From Candidatus Magasanikbacteria bacterium RIFOXYC2_FULL_40_16 (lineage in GTDB: Bacteria > Patescibacteriota > Patescibacteriia > Magasanikbacterales > UBA922): DNA of 44,026 bases. The stretch lies in the NCBI GenBank assembly GCA_001783185.1, contig MFQY01000053.1, positions 1 through 44,026 on the forward strand, given 5' to 3'. Positions 406 to 41,662 of this stretch are shown here, piece after piece; the stretch's first letter is position 1; each line of letters begins with the position of its first letter. A model generated the notes under the pieces. The model saw only the letters and a list, made by a program, of their open reading frames with translations, did not search any database and was not told where the DNA came from. The position numbers were made by a program, and so were the translations under genes.

Positions 406-1701
406 TCAATCCGGCACCACTTCTATCCAGTCTTCAATCAGCCATCCGCCTCCCGGTCCGCTGGAAAAATTCAAATTTATCAAACCGGATTCATAAATAA
501 TCTGGCAATTGTTCTCCGCCTGAATTTGATAAGCGGTCGCTTCTTTCAAAGTCGCGCTATTTTCAATAAACAACAGCCCGTGTGGAGCATATAAAATCCC
601 GCGAAGCTGGGCGTTGTTTTGCATCCTTATTGCCGGGTCAGATGGATCAAGCTGGTCAACAGAGCTAAGAAGCATTACATAGCTATCATTTGGCTCATTG
701 CAACCGTCATCATAATCGTATCCTTCAGAACCACAAATAATAAAATTGTTTTTTATATCAATATCCCCGTCCACAATTATCATTCCACTATTGTCTCCAT
801 AGGCTGAATCCAATTGTAAAACTCCATTATTATATAAAATCAGATTTCCTGTCACCCAAATCGTGCCGGCCAGAGTGAACACATCATTGCCATCTCCGCC
901 AATAGTCAGATTGCCGACTATTTTTGTCAAACCGAGCGAAGTGTTACCGTCTTCATAAGTAAAATTACCTGTCATCTCTTCTCCGCTGGCGACGGTCGCT
1001 TTCCAGCCATCAATTTGTTCATCCGTAATCGGCATATCCACCGGCTCGGGATCAGGGCTGTCCGGATAAGAAGTGCCGGCGACAGAACCGCCTGATATGC
1101 TTTGGTAATATGCATCCCCGCCAATCACACTATCTTTAATAGTATGCGCGTGCGCGTCTCCGCCTACATCAAAAGTATCAATTTTCCCTGTTGCCCCCAC
1201 TACCCACACATCTCCTGTGGCATGAGCGGAATTGACACCCACTACATCTCCGTTGGAATAAAGATTGCCTACAATCGTACTGTCATTTTTCATCAAAATT
1301 CCTCCTTGTCCGGTTTGGATGCCATAATTAAAACTTGCTCCTTCCACCGATGGCGTCAAATTTACTTCCACCGCCCTGACAAAACCGTCCTTGTCCGCGG
1401 AAGAGGAAATTATAAACAAATCGTCAACTTGCCCGAGACCGACAGTGGCTGTCGCCCCGGCCAAACTTAAAGTATTAAACCACTCATAACTCAAATCCGG
1501 ATTAACCATTCGTAAAATCATATCTTCCAATCCCGACTCGGCCGTATAATAACTCTGAGCCGAACCTAAGATATTGCGGACGATTTTTTCTCTGATTACC
1601 AAAATGGAAGCGATGCTGTTGACAATAACAAAGCCAATGGTGGTTGCCAGCAAAACACTGACAATCGCCGCATAGCCTTGGTTGTTTAAAAACTTTTTCA
1701 T
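406..1701 (-). CDS. PilX-like / minor pilus-associated protein (N-terminal hydrophobic anchor, beta-helix-like G-D-rich repeats)
   Basis: 431-aa ORF, last gene of the pseudopilin operon. The N-terminus NNQGYAAIVSVLLATTIGFVIVNS resembles the PilX_N hydrophobic segment. The body has repeated GDV/GGDA motifs. No canonical G|F..E cleavage motif. Confidence 0.5.
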   Translation of the reverse strand: MKKFLNNQGYAAIVSVLLATTIGFVIVNSIASILVIREKIVRNILGSAQSYYTAESGLEDMILRMVNPDLSYEWFNTLSLAGATATVGLGQVDDLFIISSSADKDGFVRAVEVNLTPSVEGASFNYGIQTGQGGILMKNDSTIVGNLYSNGDVVGVNSAHATGDVWVVGATGKIDTFDVGGDAHAHTIKDSVIGGDAYYQSISGGSVAGTSYPDSPDPEPVDMPITDEQIDGWKATVASGEEMTGNFTYEDGNTSLGLTKIVGNLTIGGDGNDVFTLAGTIWVTGNLILYNNGVLQLDSAYGDNSGMIIVDGDIDIKNNFIICGSEGYDYDDGCNEPNDSYVMLLSSVDQLDPSDPAIRMQNNAQLRGILYAPHGLLFIENSATLKEATAYQIQAENNCQIIYESGLINLNFSSGPGGGWLIEDWIEVVPD

Positions 1702-1706
1702 ATAAA

Positions 1707-2270
1707 TTAATATTGTCTAAACGACACCGTAGTCGTCAAAGTCACCCTGCTCTGATCTTGAACCTCAGACGAGGGTGTATCAAAAGAAGCAGTAATGGAA
1801 ATCCGCACCGCCTGATGCTGGTCGACTGAATTCAAATGCGTAAAAGTCAAACTCTCTACTTGGATTTTTTCCGAAACAATAATTTGTTCCACCTGTCCCT
1901 CTTTTTTTACATAAAGCCCGCCGTCGTCAACAAAAAAATCTACAAAAGTATAATCTTCTCCGGCAACCGCGTTTCTGACTGTTTCCAAACTTAACTGTCC
2001 GGGACTGGCGTCAAAAACACTGGTTGGCGTATATACACTGGAAGCATGTCTGACTTCCTGCGACATTGTCTCTAAAGCGCTTTTTATATTTCCCAACACC
2101 TCGCTCCGCGCCTGCACATACATATTATTTCTGACCAATTGCGGCAAAAAAGCGGCCACCATCGTCGCGACAATCGCCATAATCATCACATACATAATCA
2201 TCTCTACCAAAGAAAACCCAGCACCACTTTTTTTTGTAAAAAAAAGTGGTGCTGGGTAAACCCTCTTCAT
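1707..2270 (-). CDS. type IV pilin-like pseudopilin (prepilin leader MKRVYPAPLFFTKKSGAG|FSLVEM)
   Basis: Class III signal peptide: G|F cleavage site, Glu at +5 and a hydrophobic helix (IMYVMIMAIVATMVAAF). The ORF track extends to 2345, but the ATG at 2270 is the first start after the upstream half-repeat. The start is uncertain. Confidence 0.7.
   Translation of the reverse strand: MKRVYPAPLFFTKKSGAGFSLVEMIMYVMIMAIVATMVAAFLPQLVRNNMYVQARSEVLGNIKSALETMSQEVRHASSVYTPTSVFDASPGQLSLETVRNAVAGEDYTFVDFFVDDGGLYVKKEGQVEQIIVSEKIQVESLTFTHLNSVDQHQAVRISITASFDTPSSEVQDQSRVTLTTTVSFRQY
2217..2256. repeat. perfect palindrome CCCAGCACCAC-T8-GT-A8-GTGGTGCTGGG inside the pseudopilin leader codons
   Basis: Read directly: 19-nt arms, and the right arm encodes ..SGAG of the prepilin cleavage site. 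A half-copy (AAAAAAAGTGGTGCTGGATAAAC) lies at 2286-2308. Confidence 0.9.
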
Positions 2271-2348
2271 TCTTTTTTTTTTCACAAAAAAAGTGGTGCT
2301 GGATAAACTCCCTCTAATCCCTTTATTTTTGGAAAGAAAAAACATAAA

Positions 2349-3137
2349 CTAATTATTCAAAAAATTTGTCAGATATGCCTGTAAAGATACAGCCTCATTA
2401 TTTCCCCGCTCAAGCCAAGAAACACTCGCGACAATTCTTTTTGTTTTCGGGTCATCAGTCCCCGCCTCGGCAATATCATCATTAACATCCCGATTAACAC
2501 TATATATCGTTATCGTTCTGGTAAAAACGCCGTTAATGGCCGGTTGCGCGACCGCTGTCAAAGTCCATCGTCCATCAACAATCACCGGATAATACGCCAC
2601 ACCGCTTGTTAAAATCGCAATGTCATCCGTCCAATTATTATTTTTTATCGTCCTGACTATTTCTACCCCCTCTTGAGCAAACTGGATCGCTTCGGTTTTT
2701 CTCAAACCCTCATGCATAATTTTATTTGAGAAAGAAATTATTCCATAAATTGAACTGAAAAAAAATAAAGCAATCGCAATCGCAATTATAATTTCCACCA
2801 TGCTAAACCCAGCACCACTTCTTTTTACAAAAGAAGTGGTGCTGGGTAAACCCTCCTCATTTTTTTTTACAAAAGAAGTGGTGCTGGGTAAACCCGCTCT
2901 CTTTTTAAGTTCCCTTAACGCATTACCATTGTGTTTTAATCTTTTTTCTCTCATACGAGCTAATTCTTCTTTATTATACGCTTCATAATATATAAGCTTC
3001 CATGGTTTATGTTGTCTTGTATAAAACTCTCCTTTTTTATTATGATAATCTAATCTCTCTTTCAAATTTTTTGTAGACCCTACATAGATTTTTCCATTTT
3101 TTTCACTCTCTAACAAATAAACATAATACATACTCAT
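2349..3137 (-). CDS. GIY-YIG nuclease domain (N-terminal ~85 aa) in one continuous frame with a type IV pseudopilin (..KRSGAG|FSMVEI..)
   Basis: The N-terminus YYVYLLESEKNGKIYVGSTKNLKERLDYHN...E..R.. matches GIY-YIG (YhbQ/UPF0213-like). It is followed by duplicated GLPSTTSFVK units, then a prepilin motif and a hydrophobic helix. No in-frame ATG lies between the two parts. The ATG at 2860, homologous to the neighbouring pilin's start, is out of frame by 1 nt. Confidence 0.6.
   Translation of the reverse strand: MSMYYVYLLESEKNGKIYVGSTKNLKERLDYHNKKGEFYTRQHKPWKLIYYEAYNKEELARMREKRLKHNGNALRELKKRAGLPSTTSFVKKNEEGLPSTTSFVKRSGAGFSMVEIIIAIAIALFFFSSIYGIISFSNKIMHEGLRKTEAIQFAQEGVEIVRTIKNNNWTDDIAILTSGVAYYPVIVDGRWTLTAVAQPAINGVFTRTITIYSVNRDVNDDIAEAGTDDPKTKRIVASVSWLERGNNEAVSLQAYLTNFLNN
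2808..2846. repeat. palindrome CCCAGCACCACTTCTTTT-TAC-AAAAGAAGTGGTGCTGGG in pseudopilin leader codons
   Basis: Read directly: 18-nt arms. An extra tandem half-copy (ACAAAAGAAGTGGTGCTGGGTAAACCC) lies at 2869-2895. Confidence 0.9.
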
Positions 3138-3146
3138 CCACTATTT

Positions 3147-4043
3147 TTATTGAACAGTCATATCCCCACCAAACACAGCCACAGTCGCGACTCCGTCCGC
3201 GGTAAAAGAAACAATGTCTTTTCCATCAACCGACACATCCAAAGCTTTTGTATTATATCGGCCATCCCGATGAATACATAAAACCGTATCAAACTCATCC
3301 AAAGAATGAGTGTGTATGCGTACAACTTGACTCTCGCCATCAACAACTACTGTCCCCGACCAATCAAATACCGTCTCTCCCGCGTCAAAATAATCCGCCA
3401 TCGTAATAACTTCATCCACATCCACTGTTCCGTCAAAATGCAATTCCAAATCACTGCTTCCTTGTAAACTCCAACTAAGGTCAAAATGTGTATGGCGAGA
3501 ATCAACTTCTCTGGTATCTTCCAATTCAATCGTTCCTTCCAACCCGACCCGTCCCGAAGGTAAAATCTTTATCGTCCGGCTTTCACTGTGATCATCGGCC
3601 AACCGTAAAATTACATCTTCAGTATGTCCTGTCGTCCCGGTCAGACGGTCAAACGCTATCGTATCGCTGGTGCCCTCCCAAATATCAGTGTATTCAACGC
3701 TTGTCGGGAAATATGTAATTTCATTTTCCGGGTCCAATGGATTCCAATCAAACCCTTTAAAAAGGGCATAAAAACCAGTCTCAAAATGAACGCCATACTG
3801 TTCATTATCTTCCGATGAAACCGTTTTTTCCGCCGCCAATTGCAAAGTGGCAATCACATCGCTGACTGAAGTGCTTAATTCCAATCTTTTTTGAAAAGAC
3901 CGGTAGCTAATAAGACCGGCCGTCGCTAAAATCATAATCGTGGCGACAACCAATAAAATTTCAATCAGTGAGAACCCAGCACCATTTTTTTCCCAAAAAA
4001 AGTGGTGCTGGATAAAACCTTTTTTATTTAAGTATTTAAACAT
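3147..4043 (-). CDS. type IV pilin-like pseudopilin, GspH/FimT-like with long C-terminal extension (leader ..EKNGAG|FSLIEIL)
   Basis: Prepilin motif with Glu at +5 and a hydrophobic helix LLVVATIMILATAGLISY. The ORF track starts at 4067; the second ATG at 4043 is equally possible. Confidence 0.7.
   Translation of the reverse strand: MFKYLNKKGFIQHHFFWEKNGAGFSLIEILLVVATIMILATAGLISYRSFQKRLELSTSVSDVIATLQLAAEKTVSSEDNEQYGVHFETGFYALFKGFDWNPLDPENEITYFPTSVEYTDIWEGTSDTIAFDRLTGTTGHTEDVILRLADDHSESRTIKILPSGRVGLEGTIELEDTREVDSRHTHFDLSWSLQGSSDLELHFDGTVDVDEVITMADYFDAGETVFDWSGTVVVDGESQVVRIHTHSLDEFDTVLCIHRDGRYNTKALDVSVDGKDIVSFTADGVATVAVFGGDMTVQ
3976..4011. repeat. near-perfect palindrome CCAGCACCA-T7-CCC-A7-GTGGTGCTGG in pseudopilin leader codons
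   Basis: Read directly. It is the third member of the same family, with a one-nucleotide bulge. Confidence 0.85.
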
Positions 4044-4120
4044 AAAAACATACAAGCATTTAAACATTACAATATGTTTGTATGTTTAAATGTTTAGATG
4101 TTTACATGCGCGTATTATAC

Positions 4121-5030: not shown

Positions 5031-5091
5031 AAAGATTAGAGATTAAAGATTTAAGTGATTGAGTGGTTAGGTGGTTAGGTGATAAAGTGAT

Positions 5092-5649
5092 TTACACGTC
5101 CGCGATATTGCTCTCCAAAAGCTCATCAAGTTTTTTATCAATATCTTCCATTTTGATATTCTCCGCTTTGGTTTCCGTTTTTTCTCTTGATTTAGCTTTG
5201 GCAGGCTTCTTCGCGTCAATTTGATGGCTGGCTTCCACATCCTCGCTCGGCTTTGGCTGTTCTTCCCTAACTGCCCTGACCGGTTCGTTTTCTCTTTCTT
5301 TCACCGCGTCTCTGACAGTAACATCGCTAATCGCGCTTATTTTATCCGGGATTGATTCTTCTTTGCCGGCAATCCTTACCACCATTCTCAATAATTCATT
5401 CATCAAGCCCAAATTATTTCTAATGGCTCCAATATCTTTTGTTTCCGCCTCAAAATTGCACAACTGAAAATATCCGTATCTGATATGTTTAACCGGATAC
5501 GCGATTCTACTTTTGCCCAAGTCCTTTACGCTTAATTCCTTTCCTCCGCCTTTTTCAATAACTTCTTCAACTTTCTTAACAACCGGAGAAATCTCATTTT
5601 CCGCCAAAGTGCCGGGCAAAATAAATAATAGTTCGTATTTTTTTACCAT
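5092..5649 (-). CDS. rpsF: 30S ribosomal protein S6 with long charged C-terminal extension
   Basis: MVKKYELLFILPGTL...SRIAYPVKHIRYGYFQLCNFEA is S6-like, and this is the first gene of the rpsF-ssb-rpsR operon. Confidence 0.85.
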   Translation of the reverse strand: MVKKYELLFILPGTLAENEISPVVKKVEEVIEKGGGKELSVKDLGKSRIAYPVKHIRYGYFQLCNFEAETKDIGAIRNNLGLMNELLRMVVRIAGKEESIPDKISAISDVTVRDAVKERENEPVRAVREEQPKPSEDVEASHQIDAKKPAKAKSREKTETKAENIKMEDIDKKLDELLESNIADV

Positions 5650-5764: not shown

Positions 5765-5923
5765 TCAACCCCGTCACCATTCTGGCATAGGTTGCGGGTA
5801 ATACAAAAACAGAGCCGCGAGGTCCCGACCGTGGTCGAGGATCCTCGGTTGGACGCAATCGGGACGACTCCGTCTTTGTGTTTTGGGAAACAAAAGATGT
5901 TTTCAGAAAGGTGACGGGGTCAA
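5765..5923. mobile_element. MITE-like element with ~20-bp terminal inverted repeats (TCAACCCCGTCACCATTCTG / CAGAAAGGTGACGGGGTCAA), copy A
   Basis: The terminal repeats and an internal core (AGCCGCGAGG...GACTCCGTCTTTGT.TTT) are shared with 30595-30711. This copy has an extra nested TCCCGA...TCGGGA hairpin at 5823-5864. Confidence 0.7.
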
Positions 5924-8934: not shown

Positions 8935-8937
8935 ATG

Positions 8938-9014
8938 AACATTTTGAACAAGCCAAGCGATATAACATTTTGAACATTTTGAACAAGCCAAGCGATATAA
9001 CATTTTGAACAAGC
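8938..9014. repeat. tandem ~26-nt repeat AACATTTTGAACAAGCCAAGCGATAT (2 full copies plus partials)
   Basis: Read directly. The words TTGAAC/TAGAAC are the reverse complement of the GTTCTA words in the preceding array. Confidence 0.85.
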
Positions 9015-9081: not shown

Positions 9082-10185
9082 ATGTTTTTCAACCCTTTTC
9101 CACACGCAATCGGACTGGACATAGGCGACCTGACAATAAAAATGGTCCAGCTTGATAATATCTCCCGGAGAAAAAATCATCCGTCATTTAGGTTGGTAAA
9201 CGCGCGCAGTACCCAACTTCCGCACGGATTGATTGTTAATGGTGAATTGGAAAAACCGGAAGCGGTCAGAAAATATCTTCTCCATTTACTTGAAAAAAGG
9301 GGCGACCGAAAAGATAAATACTACAAATCCCCATGGGTGGTTGCATCCATTCCCGACAGATATGGTTTTATAAAACTAATCCAACTGGAAAAAGAACCCG
9401 AAGACATCATAGACGAGGATATTATCATCGCTTCGCAAAAGCATGTGCCTTTTCAGGAAAATGATTACTACCTTGATTGGCAAATCGTGCCCAGCCACAA
9501 TCATGGAACCGAATATACCAATGTTTTACTGGCGAGCATTCCAAAAAATATTGCCAATATGTACACCTACCTGCTGGAAAGCGTAGGCTTAATCGTGGTG
9601 GCGCTGGAACTTGGCGCTCTCTCAACCGTCAGAACCATGATAACGGCCAATAAACATTATGATAGCGAAGGTCGTGGCATCCTGCGTCTTGGCTCAACCG
9701 AATCAACCCTGACCGTGTATGACCACGACCATGTGCAGTTCAGTAAATCGCTGAATTATTCCGGAGAAGTTTTAACAGCCGCCATCGCCCAAAATCTGCA
9801 TATCACCTACGAAGAAGCGGAGATGAAAAAGAAGGCCTACGGTCTGGAATACACAAAAAATAAAGTCTGGCCGATATTGGCGGAGCAAACCGACAAGTTA
9901 ATCGTTGAAATAGAACAAATTTTGGATTTTTACTACACCCATTTTCCTTTTACCAATAAAATCACCAAGATAGTGATGTGTGGGGGCGGTTCAACTCTGA
10001 AAAATCTGGATAAGGCGCTGACGGCAAAATTAAAAATAGAAACAAAAACCGGCGATGTCTGGAAAAATCTTTCTCCATCCAAACCGATTAATATGGATAC
10101 GGAAAAATCACTGCGTTTCGCCAAAGCAATCGGTTTAGCCTTGCGCGCGGCCGGCAATCCGTTTTTTGATAATAACTATATATAA
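9082..10185 (+). CDS. pilM: type IV pilus assembly protein PilM (actin-like ATPase fold)
   Basis: The N-terminus GLDIGDLTIKMVQL and the CGGGS motif are typical of PilM/FtsA-like proteins. It is followed by PilN/PilO-like genes. Confidence 0.8.
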   Translation: MFFNPFPHAIGLDIGDLTIKMVQLDNISRRKNHPSFRLVNARSTQLPHGLIVNGELEKPEAVRKYLLHLLEKRGDRKDKYYKSPWVVASIPDRYGFIKLIQLEKEPEDIIDEDIIIASQKHVPFQENDYYLDWQIVPSHNHGTEYTNVLLASIPKNIANMYTYLLESVGLIVVALELGALSTVRTMITANKHYDSEGRGILRLGSTESTLTVYDHDHVQFSKSLNYSGEVLTAAIAQNLHITYEEAEMKKKAYGLEYTKNKVWPILAEQTDKLIVEIEQILDFYYTHFPFTNKITKIVMCGGGSTLKNLDKALTAKLKIETKTGDVWKNLSPSKPINMDTEKSLRFAKAIGLALRAAGNPFFDNNYI

Positions 10186-13101: not shown

Positions 13102-13842
13102 TTAGATAAACATTTTTTCTACAATCTGCCCCACTATATACCCCACCACAGACGCGATAGAAGCTAAAACAAACATCTCAAAACCGGCTTTAAACCAATT
13201 CCTTTTGGAAAACTTGGAAGTATATACTCCCAATGAAAACAGAGCTAACAAAGTTGAACCGATTGAAACAAACACCGCTACCGGCAAACCCATGAAAAAA
13301 TAAGATGCCACCGGTATCGCCCCGCCCAAAACATACGAAAACAGCATAACTATCGCGTTTTTAAAAGGATTTTCCATATTTTCCGGCACAATCCCCAATT
13401 CCCGATAAGCCATTTCCTGTAAAAATAGTTTTTTATCCTTGGAAGCGACACCTGCCATTTCTTCCGCCAGCTCTTTTGGCCAGCCGTCTATAATATACAT
13501 CTCTTTTAATTCTTCCTTTTCTTCTCCAGGGAATTTGTTCAGCTCGGTTTTTTCTTCTTCTAATTTTCTTTGGTCTATCCCTTTGACTGATTTAGTGGAT
13601 AAATATGTTCCGACCGCCATTGAGATTGACTCAACGGAAATAATAACCAGACCGGACAAAATAACCGTAAAATGATTGCCGGTCGCGGCAGCAATACCGG
13701 TAATCGCGCCCAAAGTGGAAACCATACCATCTTCCATGCCAAAAACCAATTCCCTGAAAGAGGATGATGATCCGTGATTTTGGTGATGGATATAATTTGG
13801 ATTAAATTCTATAGACATAAACACATTAAAACATAAAAGCAT
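13102..13842 (-). CDS. VIT1/CCC1-family iron/manganese transporter
   Basis: FRELVFGMEDGMVSTLGAITGIAAA, a central charged loop and C-terminal transmembrane segments. The likely true start is the ATG at 13818 (MSIEFNP). Confidence 0.75.
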   Translation of the reverse strand: MLLCFNVFMSIEFNPNYIHHQNHGSSSSFRELVFGMEDGMVSTLGAITGIAAATGNHFTVILSGLVIISVESISMAVGTYLSTKSVKGIDQRKLEEEKTELNKFPGEEKEELKEMYIIDGWPKELAEEMAGVASKDKKLFLQEMAYRELGIVPENMENPFKNAIVMLFSYVLGGAIPVASYFFMGLPVAVFVSIGSTLLALFSLGVYTSKFSKRNWFKAGFEMFVLASIASVVGYIVGQIVEKMFI

Positions 13843-13967
13843 TAAAGCATAAAAACAATAATATTATATCTCAATATCAACATATAGACAAATCCGATTA
13901 GCTTCTGATTTCTGTCTAAATTTATGATAAAAAAGCCCTTTGATACTAATATCTCCGGGCTGGCGCA

Positions 13968-14246: not shown

Positions 14247-14359
14247 AATTTATCCAGCACCTTCCCAGAATCCCCCGCGGCTTGTTGTGAAGATAAATGG
14301 GTATAAAAATTATTTTTCCTGCAGAATTTAATACTCCACAGGAAGGTGCTGGATTTATT
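14247..14359. repeat. long-range inverted repeat ATCCAGCACCTTCC ... GGAAGGTGCTGGAT (~75-nt spacer) in the leader of the 85-aa ORF
   Basis: Read directly. The CCAGCACC/GGTGCTGG core is the same as in the pseudopilin palindromes. Confidence 0.8.
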
Positions 14360-18843: not shown

Positions 18844-21000
18844 TTATCCGCGTTTTACGAATGCTAAAACCACTGCGCCGAGTTTTTTTATAAATCTCAC
18901 CACAAAAAATCCGCGCGCTTTAACAGACAAACCGATTAAAATTGAAGTTAGCCCACCGGCGGTGGCGATCAAGTATTTTTCCGCCGTGTCTGTTTGACTG
19001 GCTTCTGCCACAGCCTCGCCCTCGCCGGCCGTATTTAACAATTCAATATCCTCGCTGGAACGAGGAAGCAACTGATAACCAGCCGACCTCTCAATTAAAA
19101 TCCCTTTAACAGCGATCCTGTCCCCTGTTTCAAAAGAACTGCTGTCTATATTTGCGTTTTCCTTGAAAGAAACTTTGATTTCCTCGGCGCCGTCATCCAA
19201 ATAAATATATGAACTTTTCTTTTCCGTCACTTCGCCCTCAATCCGCAAAAAACTCCCCTCATATTTTTCATCTATCTCGCTTATTTTCAATGCAATAACT
19301 TCCGGCTCGCTTTTGCCGACGACTTTAATATCTTCTTTGTTCTTTATCTTTATTCTGGTCTCGCCATAGGCCTCGGATATTTCCCCGGCGACTTCAACTT
19401 CATCGCCGATTGCCAACTCCGGAAAATCTTTGCTATACATATATATCTGCGCTCCGCCGTCTTGGTTGGAAATATAAAAATACTGCGTGCCAAAAACCCC
19501 CGGCAACACCGTCACCACTCCTTTTGTTTTTACTCTGGAACCAACGGCGCGGTCGCGAAGTTCAGCCAATCCGGTTTCAACTGTCGCGCTGTATTTTACG
19601 CCGGCAACCGCGGTCAACGCCGGAGCGGAAAAACTGTTTTTTGCCCCCGGAGTAATTTTCGTCGTCCACGTCCATTGATTGGAATCATTTCTGGCAAAAC
19701 CTGCCCCCTCCGTCACGCTTGAATAATCTATTTCATCTATTATGGCGTTATCACCGGCTAACAATCTGGCCGAATCCATATCATTATTAAGGGCAATTTT
19801 TGTTTCCCATTTTCCAAAAACCAAATACTCCCCCGCTTTTATAATTGTATCCTTCGGAAATTTATACGGACTGGAACCACCATCCTCGTCATCCAGCTTT
19901 AAGCCATACAAATTAAAATCTTCTTCCGTCGGATTATATAATTCTATCATCTCCGTGGTGTCCGAACCGGCCGGATTGGGCAAAATTTCTGTGATAATAA
20001 TTTTTACATCCCCAATTTTAACCAACTCTTTCACTTCGCTTTCCACGACAACTTTTTTCGTGCTGGTTGAAATTAAAAAAGCGGTTGTCGTCGTTTGATT
20101 ATTTTGAGTTTTACTTTCCGACACGCCAATTTCACCCTCAACATAAATAACGTTCGGCTTGCCTTTGGTAATTTCCTGCGTGAGAGCAAAATCAACATCA
20201 TCTTTATCAGTATCCTGTCCGTCGTAAACTCTCGCCGTCGCGAGCGGATCGTCCGCTTTTGGCGCGTTGTCATTTTTATTGCCGTCGTCCCAATTGCCGT
20301 AAGACATTTGGTCTATCAGCCCGCCCGCCGGGTCAAACAACTTAATTATATCGCCCGTGTTATTCAAATTCCCTTTTGGTTTTTCCAAAACAAAAAAACC
20401 GTTCGCCAAAGTTGTTCCGCCCAAAATGCTTTTACGCACGGAGCCGTCTTCAATCCACCAACCGGACAAATCAATACTATATATAGTGGTATTATACAAT
20501 TCTAAAAACTCCACTTCGCCGTCAGCCGGGTCGCTGACGAATTCATTTATTACCACTGAACCAATATCATAACCCAATAATTCCGGCTCGCTTTGAATAA
20601 TTTCGATATTGTTTTGAACTGGCGGTGGTTCAGATTCTTGTTCATTGTTAATTGTTCCAGCCGAAGGCTGGTCCGCCTCTGGCGGAGATTGTTCATTGTC
20701 GCCTACTGTAATCAAATCTTTTAATCCATCAAAAGTAACCTGTCCGATGCCGGATACATCCATAATTTCTTCTATTGTTTCAAACGGACCATTCAGCTCG
20801 CGGTAATCAATAATCGCTTGGGCTTTTACCGCTCCAATCCCGGGCAGTAATAAATCCAGCGTTCCCACATCAGCTGTGTTAATGTTTATTTTAAGGGAAT
20901 CGTCAGCCAAAACATTTTGCATAAATAAAAAAATACCGCCTAAGATCATTAGCAATAAAAATAGTTTTTTCATATAAAAAAATAAATTAATTATGGACAT
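18844..21000 (-). CDS. ComEA-like HhH DNA-binding surface protein with two lamin-tail domains, an OB-fold and a C-terminal membrane anchor
   Basis: The signal peptide is followed by ININTADVGTLDLLLPGIGAVKAQAIIDYRELNGPFETIEEIMDVSGIG, a ComEA helix-hairpin-helix. The lamin-tail-like segments are VINEFVSDPADGEVEFLELYN and ITEILPNPAGSDTTEMIELYN. The probable start is the ATG at 20973 (MKKLFLLL). Confidence 0.7.
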   Translation of the reverse strand: MSIINLFFYMKKLFLLLMILGGIFLFMQNVLADDSLKININTADVGTLDLLLPGIGAVKAQAIIDYRELNGPFETIEEIMDVSGIGQVTFDGLKDLITVGDNEQSPPEADQPSAGTINNEQESEPPPVQNNIEIIQSEPELLGYDIGSVVINEFVSDPADGEVEFLELYNTTIYSIDLSGWWIEDGSVRKSILGGTTLANGFFVLEKPKGNLNNTGDIIKLFDPAGGLIDQMSYGNWDDGNKNDNAPKADDPLATARVYDGQDTDKDDVDFALTQEITKGKPNVIYVEGEIGVSESKTQNNQTTTTAFLISTSTKKVVVESEVKELVKIGDVKIIITEILPNPAGSDTTEMIELYNPTEEDFNLYGLKLDDEDGGSSPYKFPKDTIIKAGEYLVFGKWETKIALNNDMDSARLLAGDNAIIDEIDYSSVTEGAGFARNDSNQWTWTTKITPGAKNSFSAPALTAVAGVKYSATVETGLAELRDRAVGSRVKTKGVVTVLPGVFGTQYFYISNQDGGAQIYMYSKDFPELAIGDEVEVAGEISEAYGETRIKIKNKEDIKVVGKSEPEVIALKISEIDEKYEGSFLRIEGEVTEKKSSYIYLDDGAEEIKVSFKENANIDSSSFETGDRIAVKGILIERSAGYQLLPRSSEDIELLNTAGEGEAVAEASQTDTAEKYLIATAGGLTSILIGLSVKARGFFVVRFIKKLGAVVLAFVKRG
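20657..20686. repeat. double-hairpin element, copy 2, inside the ComEA-like CDS (encodes ..PPEADQPSAG..)
   Basis: Same stems as the copies at 5001 and 30971. On the coding strand it is flanked by the direct repeat ACAATGAACAA. The distance from repeat start to repeat start is 51 nt, so the reading frame is kept. Confidence 0.85.
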
Positions 21001-21857: not shown

Positions 21858-21901
21858 ATAATAATAACATAATAAAATTAAAAAAGGAAACAAAAAACCC
21901 T
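21858..21901. repeat. 44-bp direct repeat, right copy
   Basis: Identical to 20999-21042. It overlaps the efp terminator. Confidence 0.95.
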
Positions 21902-21920
21902 GTACCGTTCTGGTACAGGG
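21886..21920 (-). terminator. intrinsic (bidirectional-looking) terminator after efp
   Basis: CCCTGTACCG-TTCT-GGTACAGGG flanked by an A-run and a T-run. Nearly the same hairpin recurs inverted at 24399-24421. Confidence 0.7.
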
Positions 21921-21926
21921 TTTTTT

Positions 21927-22499
21927 TTATTCTTGTGATCTTCCGCCATAATCTCCCGTTTCCGTATTCACGATGACTTCTTCGCCTTCTTTGATAAATA
22001 TCGGCGCGTAAATTTTTAAATCATTGTCCAACACAATCTCTTTGGTCACATTTCCGCTGGCCGTGTCGCCTTTGACCGCCGGCGGGGCTTGCTTCACTTT
22101 ATAAACCACTTTTTTGGGTAATTCTATGGCTACAACGCTTCCTTCGTGGGTTATAGCAATCACATCTAAACCATCCTTCAGATATTTAGCGTCTTCTCCA
22201 AGCACATCAGCCCTGACATCAACCGTTTCATAAGTTTTTTGATTCATAAAAGAATAAGAATCCCCGGTTTTATACAAATATTGCATATTCACATGCTCCA
22301 CGCTTACCACATCCACGGTTTCACCGCTTTTGTAAGTAATTTCCGTTCCTTTTCCGCTGGAAATGCTTCTTAACTTTGTTTTTGTAAAAGCCGCGCCCTT
22401 GCCCGGATTTACAAATTGGCAAAAAGTCACCACCCACAAATCATTTTGGTGGCGGATAATTGCTCCTTTTCTTATATCAGTAGTTGATCCCATATTCAC
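21927..22499 (-). CDS. efp: elongation factor P
   Basis: IRKGAIIRHQNDLWVVTFCQFVNPGKGAAFTKTKLR, with the conserved modified-Lys loop PGKG. Confidence 0.9.
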   Translation of the reverse strand: MNMGSTTDIRKGAIIRHQNDLWVVTFCQFVNPGKGAAFTKTKLRSISSGKGTEITYKSGETVDVVSVEHVNMQYLYKTGDSYSFMNQKTYETVDVRADVLGEDAKYLKDGLDVIAITHEGSVVAIELPKKVVYKVKQAPPAVKGDTASGNVTKEIVLDNDLKIYAPIFIKEGEEVIVNTETGDYGGRSQE

Positions 22500-22791
22500 T
22501 TAGTCACTTTACCACCTAATCACTTAATCACTGTGGTGGCGGTAAAATTATATTAATAAAAATAATTAATCTAACTATTCTAAATAAATCCCAAATTCCA
22601 ATCAATAATCATATTTTAAATTCTAAATCCGAAGCCCGAAATCCGAAACAAATTCAAATGTTCAAAATCCTAATGTTCAAAACGTTTTGAATTTAGGTAA
22701 TTTGAATTTCGTTATTGTTTCGAGTTTCGATATTCGATATTCGAATTTCTAATACGGTGAATTAGGCCAGTTGGAATAATTAAACTTATGT

Positions 22792-23841
22792 TTAGGTTGT
22801 CAGATGGTCAGGTGATAAAATGATTGATGCTGGTAATACTAACACATCATCTATATTTTGGCAAGATAAAAATACCTGAACCAAACGGTCTACACCCAGC
22901 GCGATTCCCGCGCATTTCGGCAATTCCCCCACCGCTTCTATAAAATCCTCATCAATCTCAAACACATCCACGCCACGAGACGAAGTTTTTCGTGGTTTTC
23001 CCAATTCTTTTCTTAATTCTTTCTCCTCTACCAGCCGTTTTCTCTGCTCTTCCTCATCGGTCAACTCGGAAAACGCGTTGGCGATTTCCATACCATTCAC
23101 ATATACTTCAAATCTTTCCGCGTAGCGATTGTCTTCATCGGACAGTTTCGCCAAGGCGGCCATCTGCGCCGGATAATGATGAATAATTACCGGATCTTTC
23201 AATTTCGGTTCAATCTCGTTTAAAAATATGCGGTAAAATAAATCTTCATATTTTTCATCCTTGTCCGGATTAAAACCCCTTTCCACGCAAAGCGTGAACA
23301 TTTTTTCTTTTTCCAAATATTCATCCAAATCAATACCCGCGTATTTCTTCCACAAATCACGCATGTGAATTTTTTCAAAGAATTTGGAATTTGGAATTTG
23401 GAATTTGGAATTTTTATTTTGTATTTTTAATTTTAAATTTTGAATTAAATCCTCTACATCATCCATTATCTTATAAAAATCAACTTCGGTTCGGTACCAC
23501 TCTATCATGGTAAATTCCGGATTGTGCAATCCGCCAAAACTTTCATTATCGCGAAAGCATTTACAAATGGAAAAAATATTATCAAACCCGCCGGCCAGCA
23601 TTTTTTTCATCGCGTATTCCGGTGAAGTATGCAAATACGCCTGATACTGCTTTTTATTTTCATCGCTGATTTTTAAACTCATCGGCGACAAATACGGCTC
23701 CTGTCCGGGTAAGGCGACAATGTTCGGCGTTTCCACTTCTGTAAAATTCTTGGACCAAAAAAACTCGCGCATTGATTTTACAATTTGCGCGCGCGAAATT
23801 AAATTATCTTTGTTGTTTTTTATGTGCTGAAGCTGATTCAT
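22792..23841 (-). CDS. epmA: EF-P lysine ligase, EpmA/PoxA/GenX-like (class II lysyl-tRNA-synthetase paralogue)
   Basis: Class II motif 2 CFRDNESFGGLHNPEFTMIEWY and motif 3 AGIALGVDRLV. It lacks an anticodon-binding domain and lies next to efp. Confidence 0.7.
   Translation of the reverse strand: MNQLQHIKNNKDNLISRAQIVKSMREFFWSKNFTEVETPNIVALPGQEPYLSPMSLKISDENKKQYQAYLHTSPEYAMKKMLAGGFDNIFSICKCFRDNESFGGLHNPEFTMIEWYRTEVDFYKIMDDVEDLIQNLKLKIQNKNSKFQIPNSKFFEKIHMRDLWKKYAGIDLDEYLEKEKMFTLCVERGFNPDKDEKYEDLFYRIFLNEIEPKLKDPVIIHHYPAQMAALAKLSDEDNRYAERFEVYVNGMEIANAFSELTDEEEQRKRLVEEKELRKELGKPRKTSSRGVDVFEIDEDFIEAVGELPKCAGIALGVDRLVQVFLSCQNIDDVLVLPASIILSPDHLTT
23380..23414. repeat. heptanucleotide tandem repeat (GAATTTG) x ~5 inside the epmA-like CDS
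   Basis: Read directly. It encodes NSKFQIPNSKF on the minus strand. Confidence 0.9.
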
Positions 23842-23862: not shown

Positions 23863-23944
23863 TGTCATTCCCGAGAAAGCGGGAATCTAGTTAATAAAAG
23901 ACTGTACTAGACAATTCTGGATTCCCGTTTCCACGGGAATGACA
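23863..23944. mobile_element. 82-bp MITE/REP-like element with ~27-bp terminal inverted repeats GTCATTCCCG.G.AA.CGGGAATC.AG
   Basis: Left end TGTCATTCCCGAGAAAGCGGGAATCTAG, right end CTGGATTCCCGTTTCCACGGGAATGACA. Each end is itself a hairpin. Confidence 0.75.
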
Positions 23945-24011: not shown

Positions 24012-24398
24012 ATGGAATTTCTAATTTTCTCCGGACAATTAATTCTCTCATCCGGTCTTGGTTCAATTTTGGGCTGGCAAAGACATAAAATCGGCAAATC
24101 CGCCGGCGCCAGAACTTTCGCCATGGTGGCTTTCGGTTCCACTTTATTCACCCTTCTTTCTTTAAGCGTCGCCAACGAGCCATCCAGAATCGCGGCGCAA
24201 ATTTTGACCGGCATCGGTTTTATCGGCGCGGGCACGATTATTCATAAAAAAGAAAGTGTTGAGGGGCTGACAACCGCGGCCGGACTTTGGGCATCAGCCG
24301 CGATTGGTATGGCGGTAGGATTTGGTTGGTATATTCAAGCGATTATCGCTATGGTTTTGATGTTTGCTATTTTAGCGCTTAAACCGGATTATAAATAA
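24012..24398 (+). CDS. MgtC/SapB-family membrane protein
   Basis: GWQRHKIGKSAGARTFAMVAFGSTLFTLLS...AAQILTGIGFIGAGTII matches the MgtC N-terminal domain. An extended -10 (TGcTATAAT) lies at 23975-23983. Confidence 0.7.
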   Translation: MEFLIFSGQLILSSGLGSILGWQRHKIGKSAGARTFAMVAFGSTLFTLLSLSVANEPSRIAAQILTGIGFIGAGTIIHKKESVEGLTTAAGLWASAAIGMAVGFGWYIQAIIAMVLMFAILALKPDYK

Positions 24399-24421
24399 CC
24401 CCGTACCAGAACGGTACAGGG

Positions 24422-24450
24422 TTGACAATCAAAAATAATTGCTATAAGAT
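24422..24450 (+). promoter_or_regulatory. sigma70-type promoter for tRNA-Gly(UCC)
   Basis: TTGACA at 24422-24427, a 17-nt spacer and TAAGAT at 24445-24450, 11 nt before the tRNA 5' end. Confidence 0.5.
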
Positions 24451-30594: not shown

Positions 30595-30711
30595 TCAACC
30601 CTGTCACCATTCTGACATTAATTTGAGGTAAAATAAAAACTAAGCCGCGAGGCGACTCCGTCTTTGTATTTTAGAAAAGAATAGACATTTTTAGAAAGGT
30701 GACAGGGTCAA
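30595..30711. mobile_element. MITE-like element, copy B (same terminal repeats and core as 5765-5923, without the nested hairpin)
   Basis: TCAACCCTGTCACCATTCTG ... AGCCGCGAGGCGACTCCGTCTTTGTATTTT ... TAGAAAGGTGACAGGGTCAA. Confidence 0.7.
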
Positions 30712-37811: not shown

Positions 37812-37845
37812 GTAAGGGAACATTTATCCCGATTTTACATCGGGA
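37812..37845 (-). repeat. third copy of the hairpin module (TCCCGATGTAAAATCGGGA-TAAATGTTCCCTTAC), downstream of tRNA-Val
   Basis: Same two-hairpin module as at 31003-31036 and 39199-39235, but not preceded by a recognisable tRNA fragment. Confidence 0.7.
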
Positions 37846-39198: not shown

Positions 39199-39247
39199 AC
39201 TGTAAGGGAACACTTACCCCGACCTTGCGTCGGGGAGCTACACTCCG
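39199..39247 (-). repeat. orphan tRNA-Pro 5' fragment (nt 1-12, CGGAGTGTAGCT) fused to the hairpin module CCCCGACGCAAGGTCGGGG-TAAGTGTTCCCTTAC-AGTT
   Basis: The 12 nt at 39236-39247 are identical to the 5' end of the intact tRNA-Pro about 115 nt downstream. Confidence 0.8.
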
Positions 39248-40004: not shown

Positions 40005-40306
40005 TGCCGAGGGCGAGGATTGAACTCGCGACACGTGGATTTTCCAATTTATTATCTTGTGTTTCCACAAGGATCGGACTATATCATCACCCCGACTCAG
40101 TCGGGGGTTGGGCGCTAATGCGAGATTATTGTTGGGGCTCACTCGCTAGTCTCTACACCTTCCCCGATACTTTTACCCATCGGGGCTTGGCTCGGGATTA
40201 TCCGCTAGTCGACGGACTTCCCCGAATTCACCCAATTTTCTCATCTTAATTTACATTAAGAGGGACCGAAATTCAGTCCACTGCTCTACCACTGAGCTAC
40301 CTCGGC
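40005..40306 (-). tRNA. tRNA-Phe(GAA) interrupted by a group I intron (exons 40275-40306 and 40005-40044)
   Basis: Exon 1: GCCGAGG TA GCTC AGTGGTA GAGC A GTGGA CT. Exon 2: GAAAA TCCAC GTGTC GCGAG TTCAATC CTCGC CCTCGGC A. Joined, they give a canonical 72-nt tRNA-Phe. Confidence 0.85.
40045..40274 (-). ncRNA. group I intron (IC3-like), 230 nt, inserted between U33 and G34
   Basis: The 5' exon ends in U, which pairs as U-G in a P1 helix (GGACU with GGUCC at intron nt 8-12). The intron ends in G. The core strings AAUCCCGAGCCAAGCC.. and ..GGAAGGUGUAGAGACUAGCGAGUGAGCCCC.. and ..AUAGUCC.. resemble the cyanobacterial tRNA-Leu intron core (recalled from memory). Confidence 0.8.
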
Positions 40307-40340: not shown

Positions 40341-40416
40341 TGGTGGACCCTACCGGATTTGAACCGGTCACCTCTTCCATGCCATGGAAGCATTCTACCA
40401 AATGAACTAAGGGCCC
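40341..40416 (-). tRNA. tRNA-Ala(GGC), CCA encoded
   Basis: GGGCCCT TA GTTC ATTTGGTA GAAT G CTTCC ATGGCAT GGAAG AGGTG ACCGG TTCAAAT CCGGT AGGGTCC A CCA, with G3:U70. Confidence 0.9.
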
Positions 40417-40419
40417 GTC

Positions 40420-40683
40420 TTATTTTAATTTAATAATTTTATTTTCAATAATATCTTCTATAATATCTCGTCTTTTTAATTTTTTAATCTTATATTCAAT
40501 GCATCTAGCCTGTTTTATATCATTATAAATTTGAAAAAATTTTAATTCCCATTTACCCTTATTTTTTGTCGCGATATTTTTACCGGAATTATGTTCAGCC
40601 ATTCTTCGATCTAAATCAATCGTTGACCCTATATAATACTTGCCCGCTAATTCGCTATATATAATATACAGATAACCTACCAT
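40420..40683 (-). CDS. small GIY-YIG nuclease-family protein (87 aa)
   Basis: MVGYLYIIYSELAGKYYIGSTIDLDRRMAEHNSG...; paralogue of the N-terminal domain of 2349-3137. Its stop codon lies 3 nt from the tRNA-Ala 5' end. The start is taken at 40683; the longer ORF reads into the pseudo-tRNA. Confidence 0.75.
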   Translation of the reverse strand: MVGYLYIIYSELAGKYYIGSTIDLDRRMAEHNSGKNIATKNKGKWELKFFQIYNDIKQARCIEYKIKKLKRRDIIEDIIENKIIKLK

Positions 40684-40694
40684 AATATTATTTA

Positions 40695-40784
40695 CCAGCC
40701 ACCTTCCCGATGTGGCATCGGGACGTTCTACCAAATGCTTTTAGTCCCGATGAGCCAAAGGCGACATCGGGAAACTAAGGGCCC
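40695..40784 (-). pseudogene. decayed tRNA-Ala(GGC)-like copy carrying two TCCCGATG..CATCGGGA hairpins, truncated in the T-loop by the GIY-YIG gene
   Basis: Minus strand: GGGCCCTTAGTT-[TCCCGATGTCGCCTTTGGCTCATCGGGACTAAAAG]-CATTTGGTAGAAC-G-[TCCCGATGCCACATCGGGA]-AGGTGGCTGGTAAAT.. The intact gene reads GGGCCCTTAGTTCATTTGGTAGAATG[anticodon arm]AGGTGACCGGTTCAAAT. Confidence 0.7.
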
Positions 40785-41003
40785 GTTGATATGCCTCAAC
40801 ATAATACTAAAAATTTCACAAAAAGTCAAGGCGCGACATCATATTGATAACAATTATATCACACGCGGTTTTAAACAAACAAATCAAAACCACCCGCTCA
40901 AGAATCTGTGTGGGCGGTTTGTGTCTTGCCAGCTACACCGGCATCATCACCCGTCGCAATTTTTTTGAGCATATAATTTTTAAAGACTGAGTTAATATCT
41001 TTT

Positions 41004-41023
41004 CAGAAAGGTGACGGGGTTGA
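41004..41023. repeat. solo right-end repeat of the MITE-like family (CAGAAAGGTGACGGGGTTGA)
   Basis: Matches the right terminal repeats at 5904-5923 and 30692-30711. No left end was recognised. Confidence 0.6.
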
Positions 41024-41583: not shown

Positions 41584-41662
41584 AAAGCAACTCAAAACTA
41601 AGCAACTAAAATCTAAAATCTAAAATCTCTAATCTATAATCTATAATCTAACAATTAACAAT

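Follow-up and report, generated by a model that had tools for sequence, protein, structure and literature searches.

Hairpin-forming repeats that are paired with a small nuclease have been described for the Ssn proteins, single-domain GIY-YIG proteins of ~94 amino acids (aa; cd10448) that cut single-stranded DNA (ssDNA) beside their own hairpin repeat, NTS/SRM (Chenal et al. 2025, Nat Commun, PMC11893778). The repeat flanks the ssn gene as 20-50-nt hairpin-forming inverted repeats on its 5' and 3' sides and is dispersed in tens to hundreds of copies per genome, with 2% of NTS lying in genes; the authors raised the likeness of this architecture to an insertion sequence (IS) and left mobility untested (PMC11893778). 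Here we analysed a 44,026-nt stretch of DNA (contig MFQY01000053.1 of Candidatus Magasanikbacteria bacterium RIFOXYC2_FULL_40_16, hereafter the window), in which three pseudopilin genes each carry a palindrome in their leader-peptide codons. Our results indicate that these palindromes are probably copies of a small, target-specific mobile DNA element tied to the gene of an ~83-aa GIY-YIG nuclease. The Ssn nuclease/NTS pair is the closest described system. For the targeting of prepilin cleavage sites and for recurrent open reading frames (ORFs) that join a GIY-YIG domain in frame to a prepilin (GIY-YIG::prepilin) we found no earlier description, and searches of the searchable literature for GIY-YIG with prepilin, pilin leader or palindromes from the candidate phyla radiation (CPR) found no relevant one.

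Elements of the IS200/IS605 family also depend on hairpins for their mobility and insert beside a short specific sequence (TTAC for IS608); they make no target duplication, and they have subterminal imperfect hairpins and a Y1 transposase. Rickettsia palindromic elements (RPEs), presented by Ogata et al. in 2000, are reportedly about 100-150 bp long and stay in the mature protein. We know of no nuclease associated with them.

Palindromes in the leaders of three pseudopilin genes

The three genes (Table 1) are minus-strand ORFs with a prokaryotic N-terminal methylation motif, and they resemble GspH/ComG-type minor pseudopilins. A preliminary description of the window had reported a palindrome in each of them, and we recovered all of its elements. 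Each gene holds CCAGCACCAC-loop-GTGGTGCTGG, the full palindromes spanning 2216-2257, 2807-2847 and 3974-4013. In gene orientation, the right arm codes for the prepilin cleavage site (SGAG↓F, SGAG↓F and NGAG↓F in genes 1, 2 and 3, the arrow marking cleavage), as had been proposed, with one mismatch in the arm of gene 3 (ATGGTGCTGG). The left arm is translated as YPAPLFF, PSTTSF and IQHHFF, which confirms that it is read in all three frames. The extra left arms reported for two of the genes are also present, at 2293-2302 in gene 1 and 2878-2887 in gene 2. In the distal unit of gene 1, the degenerate right side GAATGAAGAGG includes an in-frame ATG.

With one mismatch or fewer, CCAGCACCAC occurs 11 times in the window, compared with 0.86 occurrences expected from shuffles. 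Seven exact copies and one 1-mismatch arm (CCAGCACCAT, 3976-3985) build the three palindromes and the two extra left arms, and the remaining three 1-mismatch matches (411, 9598 and 10334) are unrelated coding sequence. Two of these, at 9598 and 10334, were considered as further pilin-like sites and rejected, as they fall within the PilM and PilN coding sequences. An inverted repeat that had been pointed out at 14247-14359 proved to be real and related, with variant arms and direct-repeat flanks. The 44-kb window thus holds three full copies, two half copies and one variant copy. We also considered a DNA uptake sequence and rejected it, because the motif is not dispersed across the window.

As ssDNA, the hairpins of genes 1, 2 and 3 fold with -21.8, -22.4 and -14.4 kcal/mol (z-scores -8.8, -9.5 and -6.1), and RNA folding was consistent with these folds. 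The T and A runs, which had been taken for homopolymer loops, pair together as part of stems of 16-19 bp, so that the true loops are just 3-4 nt. Rfam found no RNA family match at the pilin locus.

Insertion sites and the enclosed nuclease gene

Comparison with orthologues showed that the palindrome is an insertion. Among 83 homologues of gene 3, ordinary short leaders (e.g. MNKKG↓FSL) were found in 76 and a palindrome-type leader in three, whereas four had no recognisable cleavage site. The palindrome-type leaders, those of the window protein (GFIQHHFFWEKNGAG), P0029 (GVYPAPLFFRKKSGAG) and P0063 (GFTKHHFYSFHKSGAG), differ in frame (QHH, PAP and KHH). The earlier claim that conservation of the left arm is at the level of nucleic acid, not of peptide, was right. 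The closest orthologue has the leader ...MLKCLNKRG↓FSLVE and the 64%-identical orthologue MECLYVYMLKCLNKRG↓FSLVE; gene 3 of the window has a 42-nt in-frame insert after KKG-F. Furthermore, a syntenic locus (L130) has PilM/C/B, S6-SSB-S18, three pilins and a 431-aa gene in the same order as the window, with neither hairpin nor GIY-YIG gene at any of the three pilin genes. Its pilin leaders are ...KRG↓FSLVE, MLKIF...NNSG↓FSIVE and MFFLKKNKKG↓FTLIEMMMY, the last belonging to an insert-free orthologue of gene 1. In a second syntenic locus (L132), gene 3 holds the hairpin, gene 2 is plain (MKNNKG↓FSLVE) and gene 1 has both a GIY-YIG gene and the hairpin. Because orthologues lack both arms, including the complementary one, the hairpin is not a conserved regulatory feature.

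Gene 1 of the window retains an ancestral start, MFFLSKNKG..., at 2345, and the frame is open across its two inserted units, so that a start at 2345 is the better reading of this gene. Simple excision was tried as a way of restoring the frame and rejected, since removal of one unit and one flank does not yield MKRGFSLVE. A near-identical strain (L214), which comes from a different metagenome and was assembled independently, differs by five substitutions over ~1 kb. It lacks one 42-nt unit of gene 2 with the fusion frame preserved, and therefore has no ATG at that place.

To see the element in other genomes, we scanned one genome per species and found the exact palindrome at at least 118 loci. 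About 46 of these are low in GC and mostly CPR-labelled; here the stem reaches as far as CCAGCACCACTTT(T)...(A)AAAGTGGTGCTGG, with variable loops. Carriage by phages was considered and rejected, as no exact match was found in 2.9 million viral contigs. The six bases that flank the copies on each side follow (G/A)T-NN-A(C/T), and the central NN of GTNNAC is equal on both flanks in 25 of 47 copies, compared with 6.5 in shuffled pairings (maximum 15). Matching pairs were GTTTAC/GTTTAC, GTTGAC/GTTGAC, GTCAAC/GTCAAC and GTATAC/GTATAC. In addition, GTTTA(C/G) is present once in empty orthologous sites and twice in filled ones, a target-site duplication. A canonical prepilin at locus L021 has a clean 45-nt in-frame insert, MPKNSGFT[QHHKDRIRKSGAGFT]LIE. 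In the three pseudopilin genes, the palindrome is an insertion at Gly-Phe-Thr/Ser codons, between GTTTAC-like direct repeats by which the cleavage site is rebuilt.

The target that is preferred, (G)GTTTAC, falls inside Gly-Phe-Thr codons (GGN TTT ACN). About 20% of the CPR copies (9 of ~46, plus three in the window) are exactly on prepilin sites, which indicates that the element is not a random landing of a repetitive extragenic palindromic (REP) sequence. Loci that hold such copies also contain insert-free pilin genes. The other copies in CPR genomes, ~80%, are at non-pilin loci, where they abut -35 boxes (GTTGACA-N17-TATAAT-like), stand beside RNase P RNA motifs or occupy intergenic sites that have TTTAC-type flanks.

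The RNase P RNA motifs with an adjoining hairpin are in the metagenomic locus L180 (316-1058) and in two loci from Saccharibacteria-labelled metagenome-assembled genomes (MAGs), L055 (7703-7844) and L089 (1229-1277); of the three, Rfam confirmed an RNase P RNA gene in L180 only. L055 and L180 have the hairpin immediately 5' of GAGGAAAGUCC, and a second variable region holds it in L055 and L089. At the P3-side position of L180 the arms enclose a whole GIY-YIG gene, and a further CCCGCACC hairpin is near the 3' end. At locus L002 (3103 and 6198), two other prepilin genes have an identical long upstream peptide, ...LESVVAHNGNKS(Q/H)ARERGALSSLTG↓FTLIE, which may represent a different repeat family at the same leader position; their SSLTG junction recurs in one fusion cluster (P0168).

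The nuclease gene was found between the arms at L070, L021, L125, L119, L127, L094 and L139, among other loci. At L070 the order is GTTTTTAC-CCCGCACCACTTTT-ATG...-AAAAGTGGTGCGGG-GTTTAT, with a compensatory change in both arms, and at L021 the gene between the arms is accompanied by a tandem solo hairpin. L125 shows an old leader (RKG-F), left arm, nuclease gene, second left arm, new ATG, right arm and FTLIE, in that order. L119, L127 and L094 have arm variants at sites that are not in pilins. We then surveyed the flanks of the 80 best metagenomic homologues of the nuclease. In 66 of them the gene stands between inverted arms of 10 nt or more, which are halves of a single palindrome and start 0-28 nt before the ATG. 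The arm sequence varies among homologues with both arms changing together (CCCGCACCAC/GTGGTGCGGG and CCAGCACTAT/ATAGTGCTGG), and further variants include CCAGCACCACTTTT, CCCGCACCTTTT, CCCACACATAAC and CCCCTCACC. Almost every one of the closest relatives of the window nuclease stands immediately 5' of a prepilin G↓F site (19 of the 80). An ATG-initiated old leader ending in G-F-T/I was visible upstream of the left arm in 7 of 14 inspected loci, and its stop often overlaps or abuts the nuclease start. These comparisons show that the palindromes are insertions with flanking repeats, that they are linked to the nuclease gene, and that the reading frames are open.

Homologues that stand free are single-domain proteins of 81-104 aa with invariant catalytic-core residues, and the window domain keeps all family-invariant residues (Y18, G20, R28, E52, R63, E64 and others). 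Its nearest relatives in PDB are the UPF0213 proteins 1ZG2 and 1YWL, plus SLX1; a PDB search for an Ssn structure found none. The left arm upstream of the nuclease has been lost in the window and L132 copies, the window having repeats on the 3' side only.

Other nuclease ORFs and hairpins were seen in the window. A second, divergent GIY-YIG ORF of ~88 aa (40420-40684, minus strand) lies directly 5' of tRNA-Ala (40341-40416). A duplicated 5' part of the tRNA, broken by CCCGAT...ATCGGG hairpins, precedes it at 40700-40800, and similar hairpins occur at 37812-37844 and 39202-39234; the arrangement suggests a further nuclease/hairpin family, with its insertion at a tRNA gene. Inverted-repeat elements of ~115-160 nt with arms TCAACCCCGTCACCATTCTG / CAGAAAGGTGACGGGGTCAA, which resemble the CCCCTCACC-type arms around some GIY-YIG homologues, are at 5768-5923 and 30598-30711. 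One copy lies between the S6 and pilB operons, and a solo arm (40994-41020) abuts a TTGACA box. Two ACCC(T/C)GTACC...GGTACAGGGT hairpins (21896-21932 and 24387-24423) have ends like those of the nuclease-element arms (ACCC...GGGT); one is bidirectional and terminator-like, the other abuts TTGACA-N17-TATAAG.

Gene 2 of the window is a single ORF in which the GIY-YIG domain is joined in frame, via hairpin units, to pseudopilin 2 (...KKRAGLPSTTSFVKKNEEGLPSTTSFVKRSGAG↓FSMVEIII...), whose mature part is intact and orthologue-like. Pfam found nothing but GIY-YIG, T5orf172 and N_methyl in this ORF. No ATG, GTG or TTG stands in frame anywhere from the nuclease domain to G↓F; the sole nearby ATG is out of frame by one base, in a frame that ends in the loop. 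Similarly, at 12 of 18 unique pilin-associated loci the ORF of the nuclease continues in frame across the right arm and on into the mature pilin (binomial p 0.004 against one-third, in a small and phylogenetically non-independent sample). A HMMER search with the 262-aa ORF against 1.84 billion representatives yielded ~56 GIY-YIG::prepilin clusters (at most 50% identity) among the top 150 matches, with proteins of 112-612 aa and KSGAG↓F as the commonest junction.

In prepilins, the Gly at -1 alone is critical to prepilin peptidase and the leader is on the cytoplasmic side, so the topology allows for a cytoplasmic nuclease 'leader'. We tentatively suggest that a prepilin may carry the nuclease as its N-terminal cytoplasmic leader and that the host prepilin peptidase may free it at the rebuilt KSGAG↓F, a possibility that presumes that the window fusion protein is produced and processed. 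If so, a selfish nuclease gene would be using signal-peptide processing as inteins use protein splicing, riding on pilin expression signals, and prepilin peptidase would tolerate leaders of ~100 aa that contain a folded domain. Ssn-type hairpin/nuclease pairs would then count as genuine mobile elements that have a defined target and duplicate it.

Table 1. Positions of the pseudopilin genes, palindromes and related features in the window
Feature	Position	Strand	Description
Gene 1 palindrome and flanking direct repeats	2212..2261	minus	GTTTAC-CCAGCACCAC-T8-AC-A8-GTGGTGCTGG-GTTTTC; 19-bp stem
Gene 1 distal tandem unit	2262..2308	minus	left arm 2293-2302, flank GTTTAT 2303-2308, degenerate right side GAATGAAGAGG
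Gene 2 palindrome and flanks	2803..2851	minus	GTTTAC-CCAGCACCAC-TTCTTTTGTAAAAAGAA-GTGGTGCTGG-GTTTAG
Gene 2 tandem unit, 42 nt (left arm and flank)	2852..2893	minus	absent in near-identical strain L214; in-frame indel
Gene 3 palindrome	3970..4017	minus	TTTTAT-CCAGCACCAC-T7-GGG-A7-TGGTGCTGG-GTTCTC; 42-nt in-frame insertion compared with orthologues
Related intergenic element, variant arms and direct-repeat flanks	14248..14358		ATTTAT-CCAGCACCTTCC-75 nt-GGAAGGTGCTGG-ATTTAT
GIY-YIG nuclease domain, ~83 aa	2889..3137	minus	Pfam 8.8e-17 over residues 3-73
Pseudopilin gene 1	1707..2345	minus	Pfam N_methyl; 43-aa leader ending KKSGAG↓FSLVEM
GIY-YIG::pseudopilin gene 2, single 262-aa ORF	2349..3137	minus	Pfam GIY-YIG 8.8e-17 and N_methyl
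Pseudopilin gene 3 (GspH-like)	3147..4067	minus	leader MFKYLNKKGF-IQHHFFWEKNGAG↓FSLIE
AT-rich tracts / 35-nt tandem duplication	4026-4107, 13801-13860, 5040-5100, 22781-22825, 41588-41656, 8936-9005

S6, SSB and S18 lie upstream of the pseudopilin genes on the same strand, and PilB, PilC, PilM, PilN and PilO are encoded on the plus strand. A protein 99% identical to one from the window is annotated as coming from a Candidatus Magasanikbacteria MAG. At 18844-21000 (minus strand), a 718-aa protein has a ComEA-like helix-hairpin-helix together with lamin-tail and OB-fold domains, and is a likely candidate for the DNA receptor of the competence machinery. AT-rich tracts with a period of ~7-8 nt (e.g. 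TTTAAACAT, GGTTAGGT and AATCTAAA) and a perfect 35-nt tandem duplication occur upstream of operons. In L130 and L132, comparable tracts stand ahead of the gene 3 orthologue, and such tracts may be promoter-region elements.

A proposed mobile element and its rivals

We propose an element with inverted termini, (A)CCCAGCACCAC-T-run on one side and A-run-GTGGTGCTGGG(T) on the other, which in its full form would carry the single-domain GIY-YIG gene between them. The short hairpins would be gene-less copies, either derived by internal deletion or serving as empty sites on which the nuclease gene could land. Insertion would occur at a GTNNAC-type target, with preference for GTTTAC, a hexamer that forms part of prepilin Gly-Phe-Thr codons. 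It would duplicate the target, and the right arm and the duplicated target together would re-encode K-S-G-A-G↓F-T, an intact prepilin-peptidase site. Because everything upstream of the rebuilt site would be leader and be cut off, an insert that keeps an open frame and a start codon should be harmless in any frame, and the three frames of the left arm would follow from such tolerance. As the target is regenerated on either side of each insert, tandem insertions and extra left arms would be expected. In gene 2, the nuclease gene would stand in front of the hairpin and be read through into the pilin. The GIY-YIG protein may mobilise the element, by analogy with Ssn nucleases, which cut ssDNA beside their own hairpin.

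Features that characterise miniature inverted-repeat transposable elements (MITEs) or IS-like elements were found: terminal inverted repeats, target-site duplication, presence/absence polymorphism at orthologous sites, and a longer partner with the same termini and a GIY-YIG gene, which would supply mobilisation. The sole enclosed gene is GIY-YIG, and no recognised transposase (DDE, HUH, serine or tyrosine recombinase) is present. Several points weigh against a mobile element. The copy number per genome seems low (mostly one per 8-kb locus), unlike that of classical REP or NTS repeats, with 44 kb of the host genome examined. As the window GIY-YIG copy has no upstream left arm, it may be immobile. 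Mobility is read from the comparison of sites, no transposition or homing event having been directly observed, and nuclease activity and specificity for the hairpin are presumed by analogy. Furthermore, co-varying inverted arms would also be expected for protein-recognised termini that form no hairpin, and a secondary host role such as expression tuning or recombination control is possible.

The element might alternatively be a domesticated Ssn-like system, in which hairpins mark pilin genes for an ssDNA nuclease and so limit or steer the recombination of transforming DNA, or shuffle pilin 5' ends; joint expression of nuclease and competence pilins would couple both processes. SsnA/NTS modulates natural transformation, and NTS cluster near membrane-protein genes (PMC11893778); in Neisseria, the pair has a comparable role around genes for surface proteins. 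The window contains a type IV pilus/competence set (PilB, PilC, PilM/N/O and a ComEA-like protein), and its nuclease ORF, like that of L132, is intact despite the lost left arm. The junction ATGA(A/G)GAGG-GTTTAC, common to genes 1 and 2 of the window and missing from gene 2 in L214, suggests ectopic exchange between repeats. However, most orthologous pilin operons have no such element, indicating that it is not a conserved part of pilus biology. The same pattern is expected of a selfish element under purifying filters, and the functional role would be assigned by analogy. We therefore regard domestication as unlikely.

In another reading, for which an attenuator had been suggested earlier, the palindrome would act in cis as a regulatory structure of RNA or DNA (transcription attenuator, terminator or translational brake), selected for low expression of minor pilins. 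The stems are very stable, and a 19-bp stem that separates the start codon from the mature coding part must affect expression somehow. The gene 1 stem, which had been noted as terminator-like, is followed by UUUCUUU and does pass a terminator-like scan. However, it is the only one of the three copies with a U-rich tail, and a GC-rich stem with a U-tract is not conserved in orthologous leaders. The arms are missing from 76 of the 83 orthologues and from the entire syntenic operon of L130; the locus has no Rfam family; and the palindrome is also found at promoters, beside RNase P RNA motifs and around the nuclease gene. Regulation is thus a very improbable explanation.

A phase-variation switch through slippage in the T and A runs was another earlier proposal. 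T7-T8 and A7-A10 runs do lie between possible start codons and the mature pilin, and an upstream ATG in gene 2 is out of frame by one base. Yet in the two assemblies that could be compared, the window and L214, run lengths of genes 1 and 2 are equal and no frame is switched by them, the only change within a run being one A-to-T substitution. The runs pair as stem, the long ORFs are open in both strains, and the sole indel is the 42-nt in-frame unit, which leaves such a switch hardly credible. Palindromes can arise as chimeras in amplified libraries, but the excess of matches over shuffles, the recurrence of the identical structure in independent assemblies, that of L214 among them, and the presence of the same arms in dozens of MAGs from unrelated studies make chance similarity or an assembly artefact a negligible explanation.

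A small mobile element therefore remains the probable explanation. The argument of the preliminary description for selection on a nucleic-acid structure holds at the nucleic-acid level and, likely, for a nuclease target, but fails for an attenuator or phase switch; of the roles that it proposed, a recombination or nuclease target came closest. Two observations that it had named as refuting its reading were made here: orthologous pilins lack the complementary arm, and outside the window many copies are at non-pilin loci. A mobile element accounts for nucleotide-level conservation inside coding sequence without a regulatory RNA. It would follow a safe-harbour strategy, inserting on the most conserved motif of type IV pilins, rebuilding the peptidase site and being lost with the leader, a strategy for which we found no description. 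Dozens of database proteins of the 'GIY-YIG + N_methyl' type and over-long CPR pilin leaders would be products of the element, which is relevant to annotators and pilus researchers.

Comparison with known systems

REP sequences, bacterial interspersed mosaic elements (BIMEs) and their REP-associated tyrosine transposases (RAYTs), together called REPtrons, resemble the present element in that short palindromes are dispersed, the cognate enzyme gene lies between inverted repeats, and the enzyme presumably acts on ssDNA hairpins. The associated gene here encodes a GIY-YIG protein, not a Y1/HUH RAYT transposase, and the element differs further by its low copy number, its flanking duplications and in not being strictly extragenic. 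With IS200/IS605 it shares hairpins and a short specific target, TTAC of IS608 being comparable to (G)TTTAC here, whereas target duplication and a GIY-YIG gene set it apart. Unlike RPEs, the insert is part of a leader that would be cut away, with tolerance of all three frames.

Homing endonucleases and inteins (GIY-YIG I-TevI, T4 Seg) are similar in placing a nuclease gene in a conserved host motif, in presence/absence polymorphism, in host-sparing strategies and in fused translation. The nuclease here has no DNA-binding domain, and its separation would rely on the host prepilin peptidase. Rfam found no group I intron at 1700-4100, where intein motifs were not searched for. The sole group I catalytic intron in the window (40055-40283, minus strand; Rfam, 93 bits) lies ~60 nt downstream of tRNA-Ala, and its host is possibly an intron-split tRNA missed by ARAGORN.

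Hairpins close to the NTS were seen in the window, where TGTCATTCCCGAGAAAGCGGGAATCTAG and its near reverse complement stand inverted in a divergent intergenic region (23863-23890 and 23917-23944). The sequence differs at 2 positions from the Neisseria NTS consensus (PMC11893778), with zero copies expected by chance, and L119 has three more ATTCCCG-N-CGGGAAT hairpins. The SRM consensus, HGTCWY..RNCYNB, used as a regular expression on the window, gave one unrelated match and none at the pilin palindromes, and in its strict form did not match even the NTS-like hairpins at 23863-23944.

The preliminary description knew of no equivalent of the palindromes, which agrees with what we found for the targeting of pilin leaders but not for the hairpin/nuclease pairing, given Ssn/NTS (PMC11893778) and the REP/RAYT analogue. 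As in Ssn, the nuclease is a single GIY-YIG domain of ~80-95 aa with no DNA-binding domain, solo copies are dispersed, and the repeat co-varies with the nuclease clade. Bracketing of the gene by its own inverted repeats is comparable in 66 of 80 homologues, whereas the window copy has repeats on the 3' side only; the likeness to Ssn is one of domain, size and architecture. The two systems differ in that here two arms of one palindrome enclose the gene, whereas Ssn has a full hairpin on each side, and in that the stems are 14-20 bp compared with ~7 bp. Copies are few here and come with target-site duplications and empty sites. About a fifth of them lie in coding sequence, at prepilin cleavage codons, compared with 2% of NTS in genes, and in-frame nuclease::prepilin ORFs are not reported for Ssn. 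The Ssn work left mobility open (PMC11893778), and the target duplications, empty sites and strain polymorphism found here make that question directly testable.

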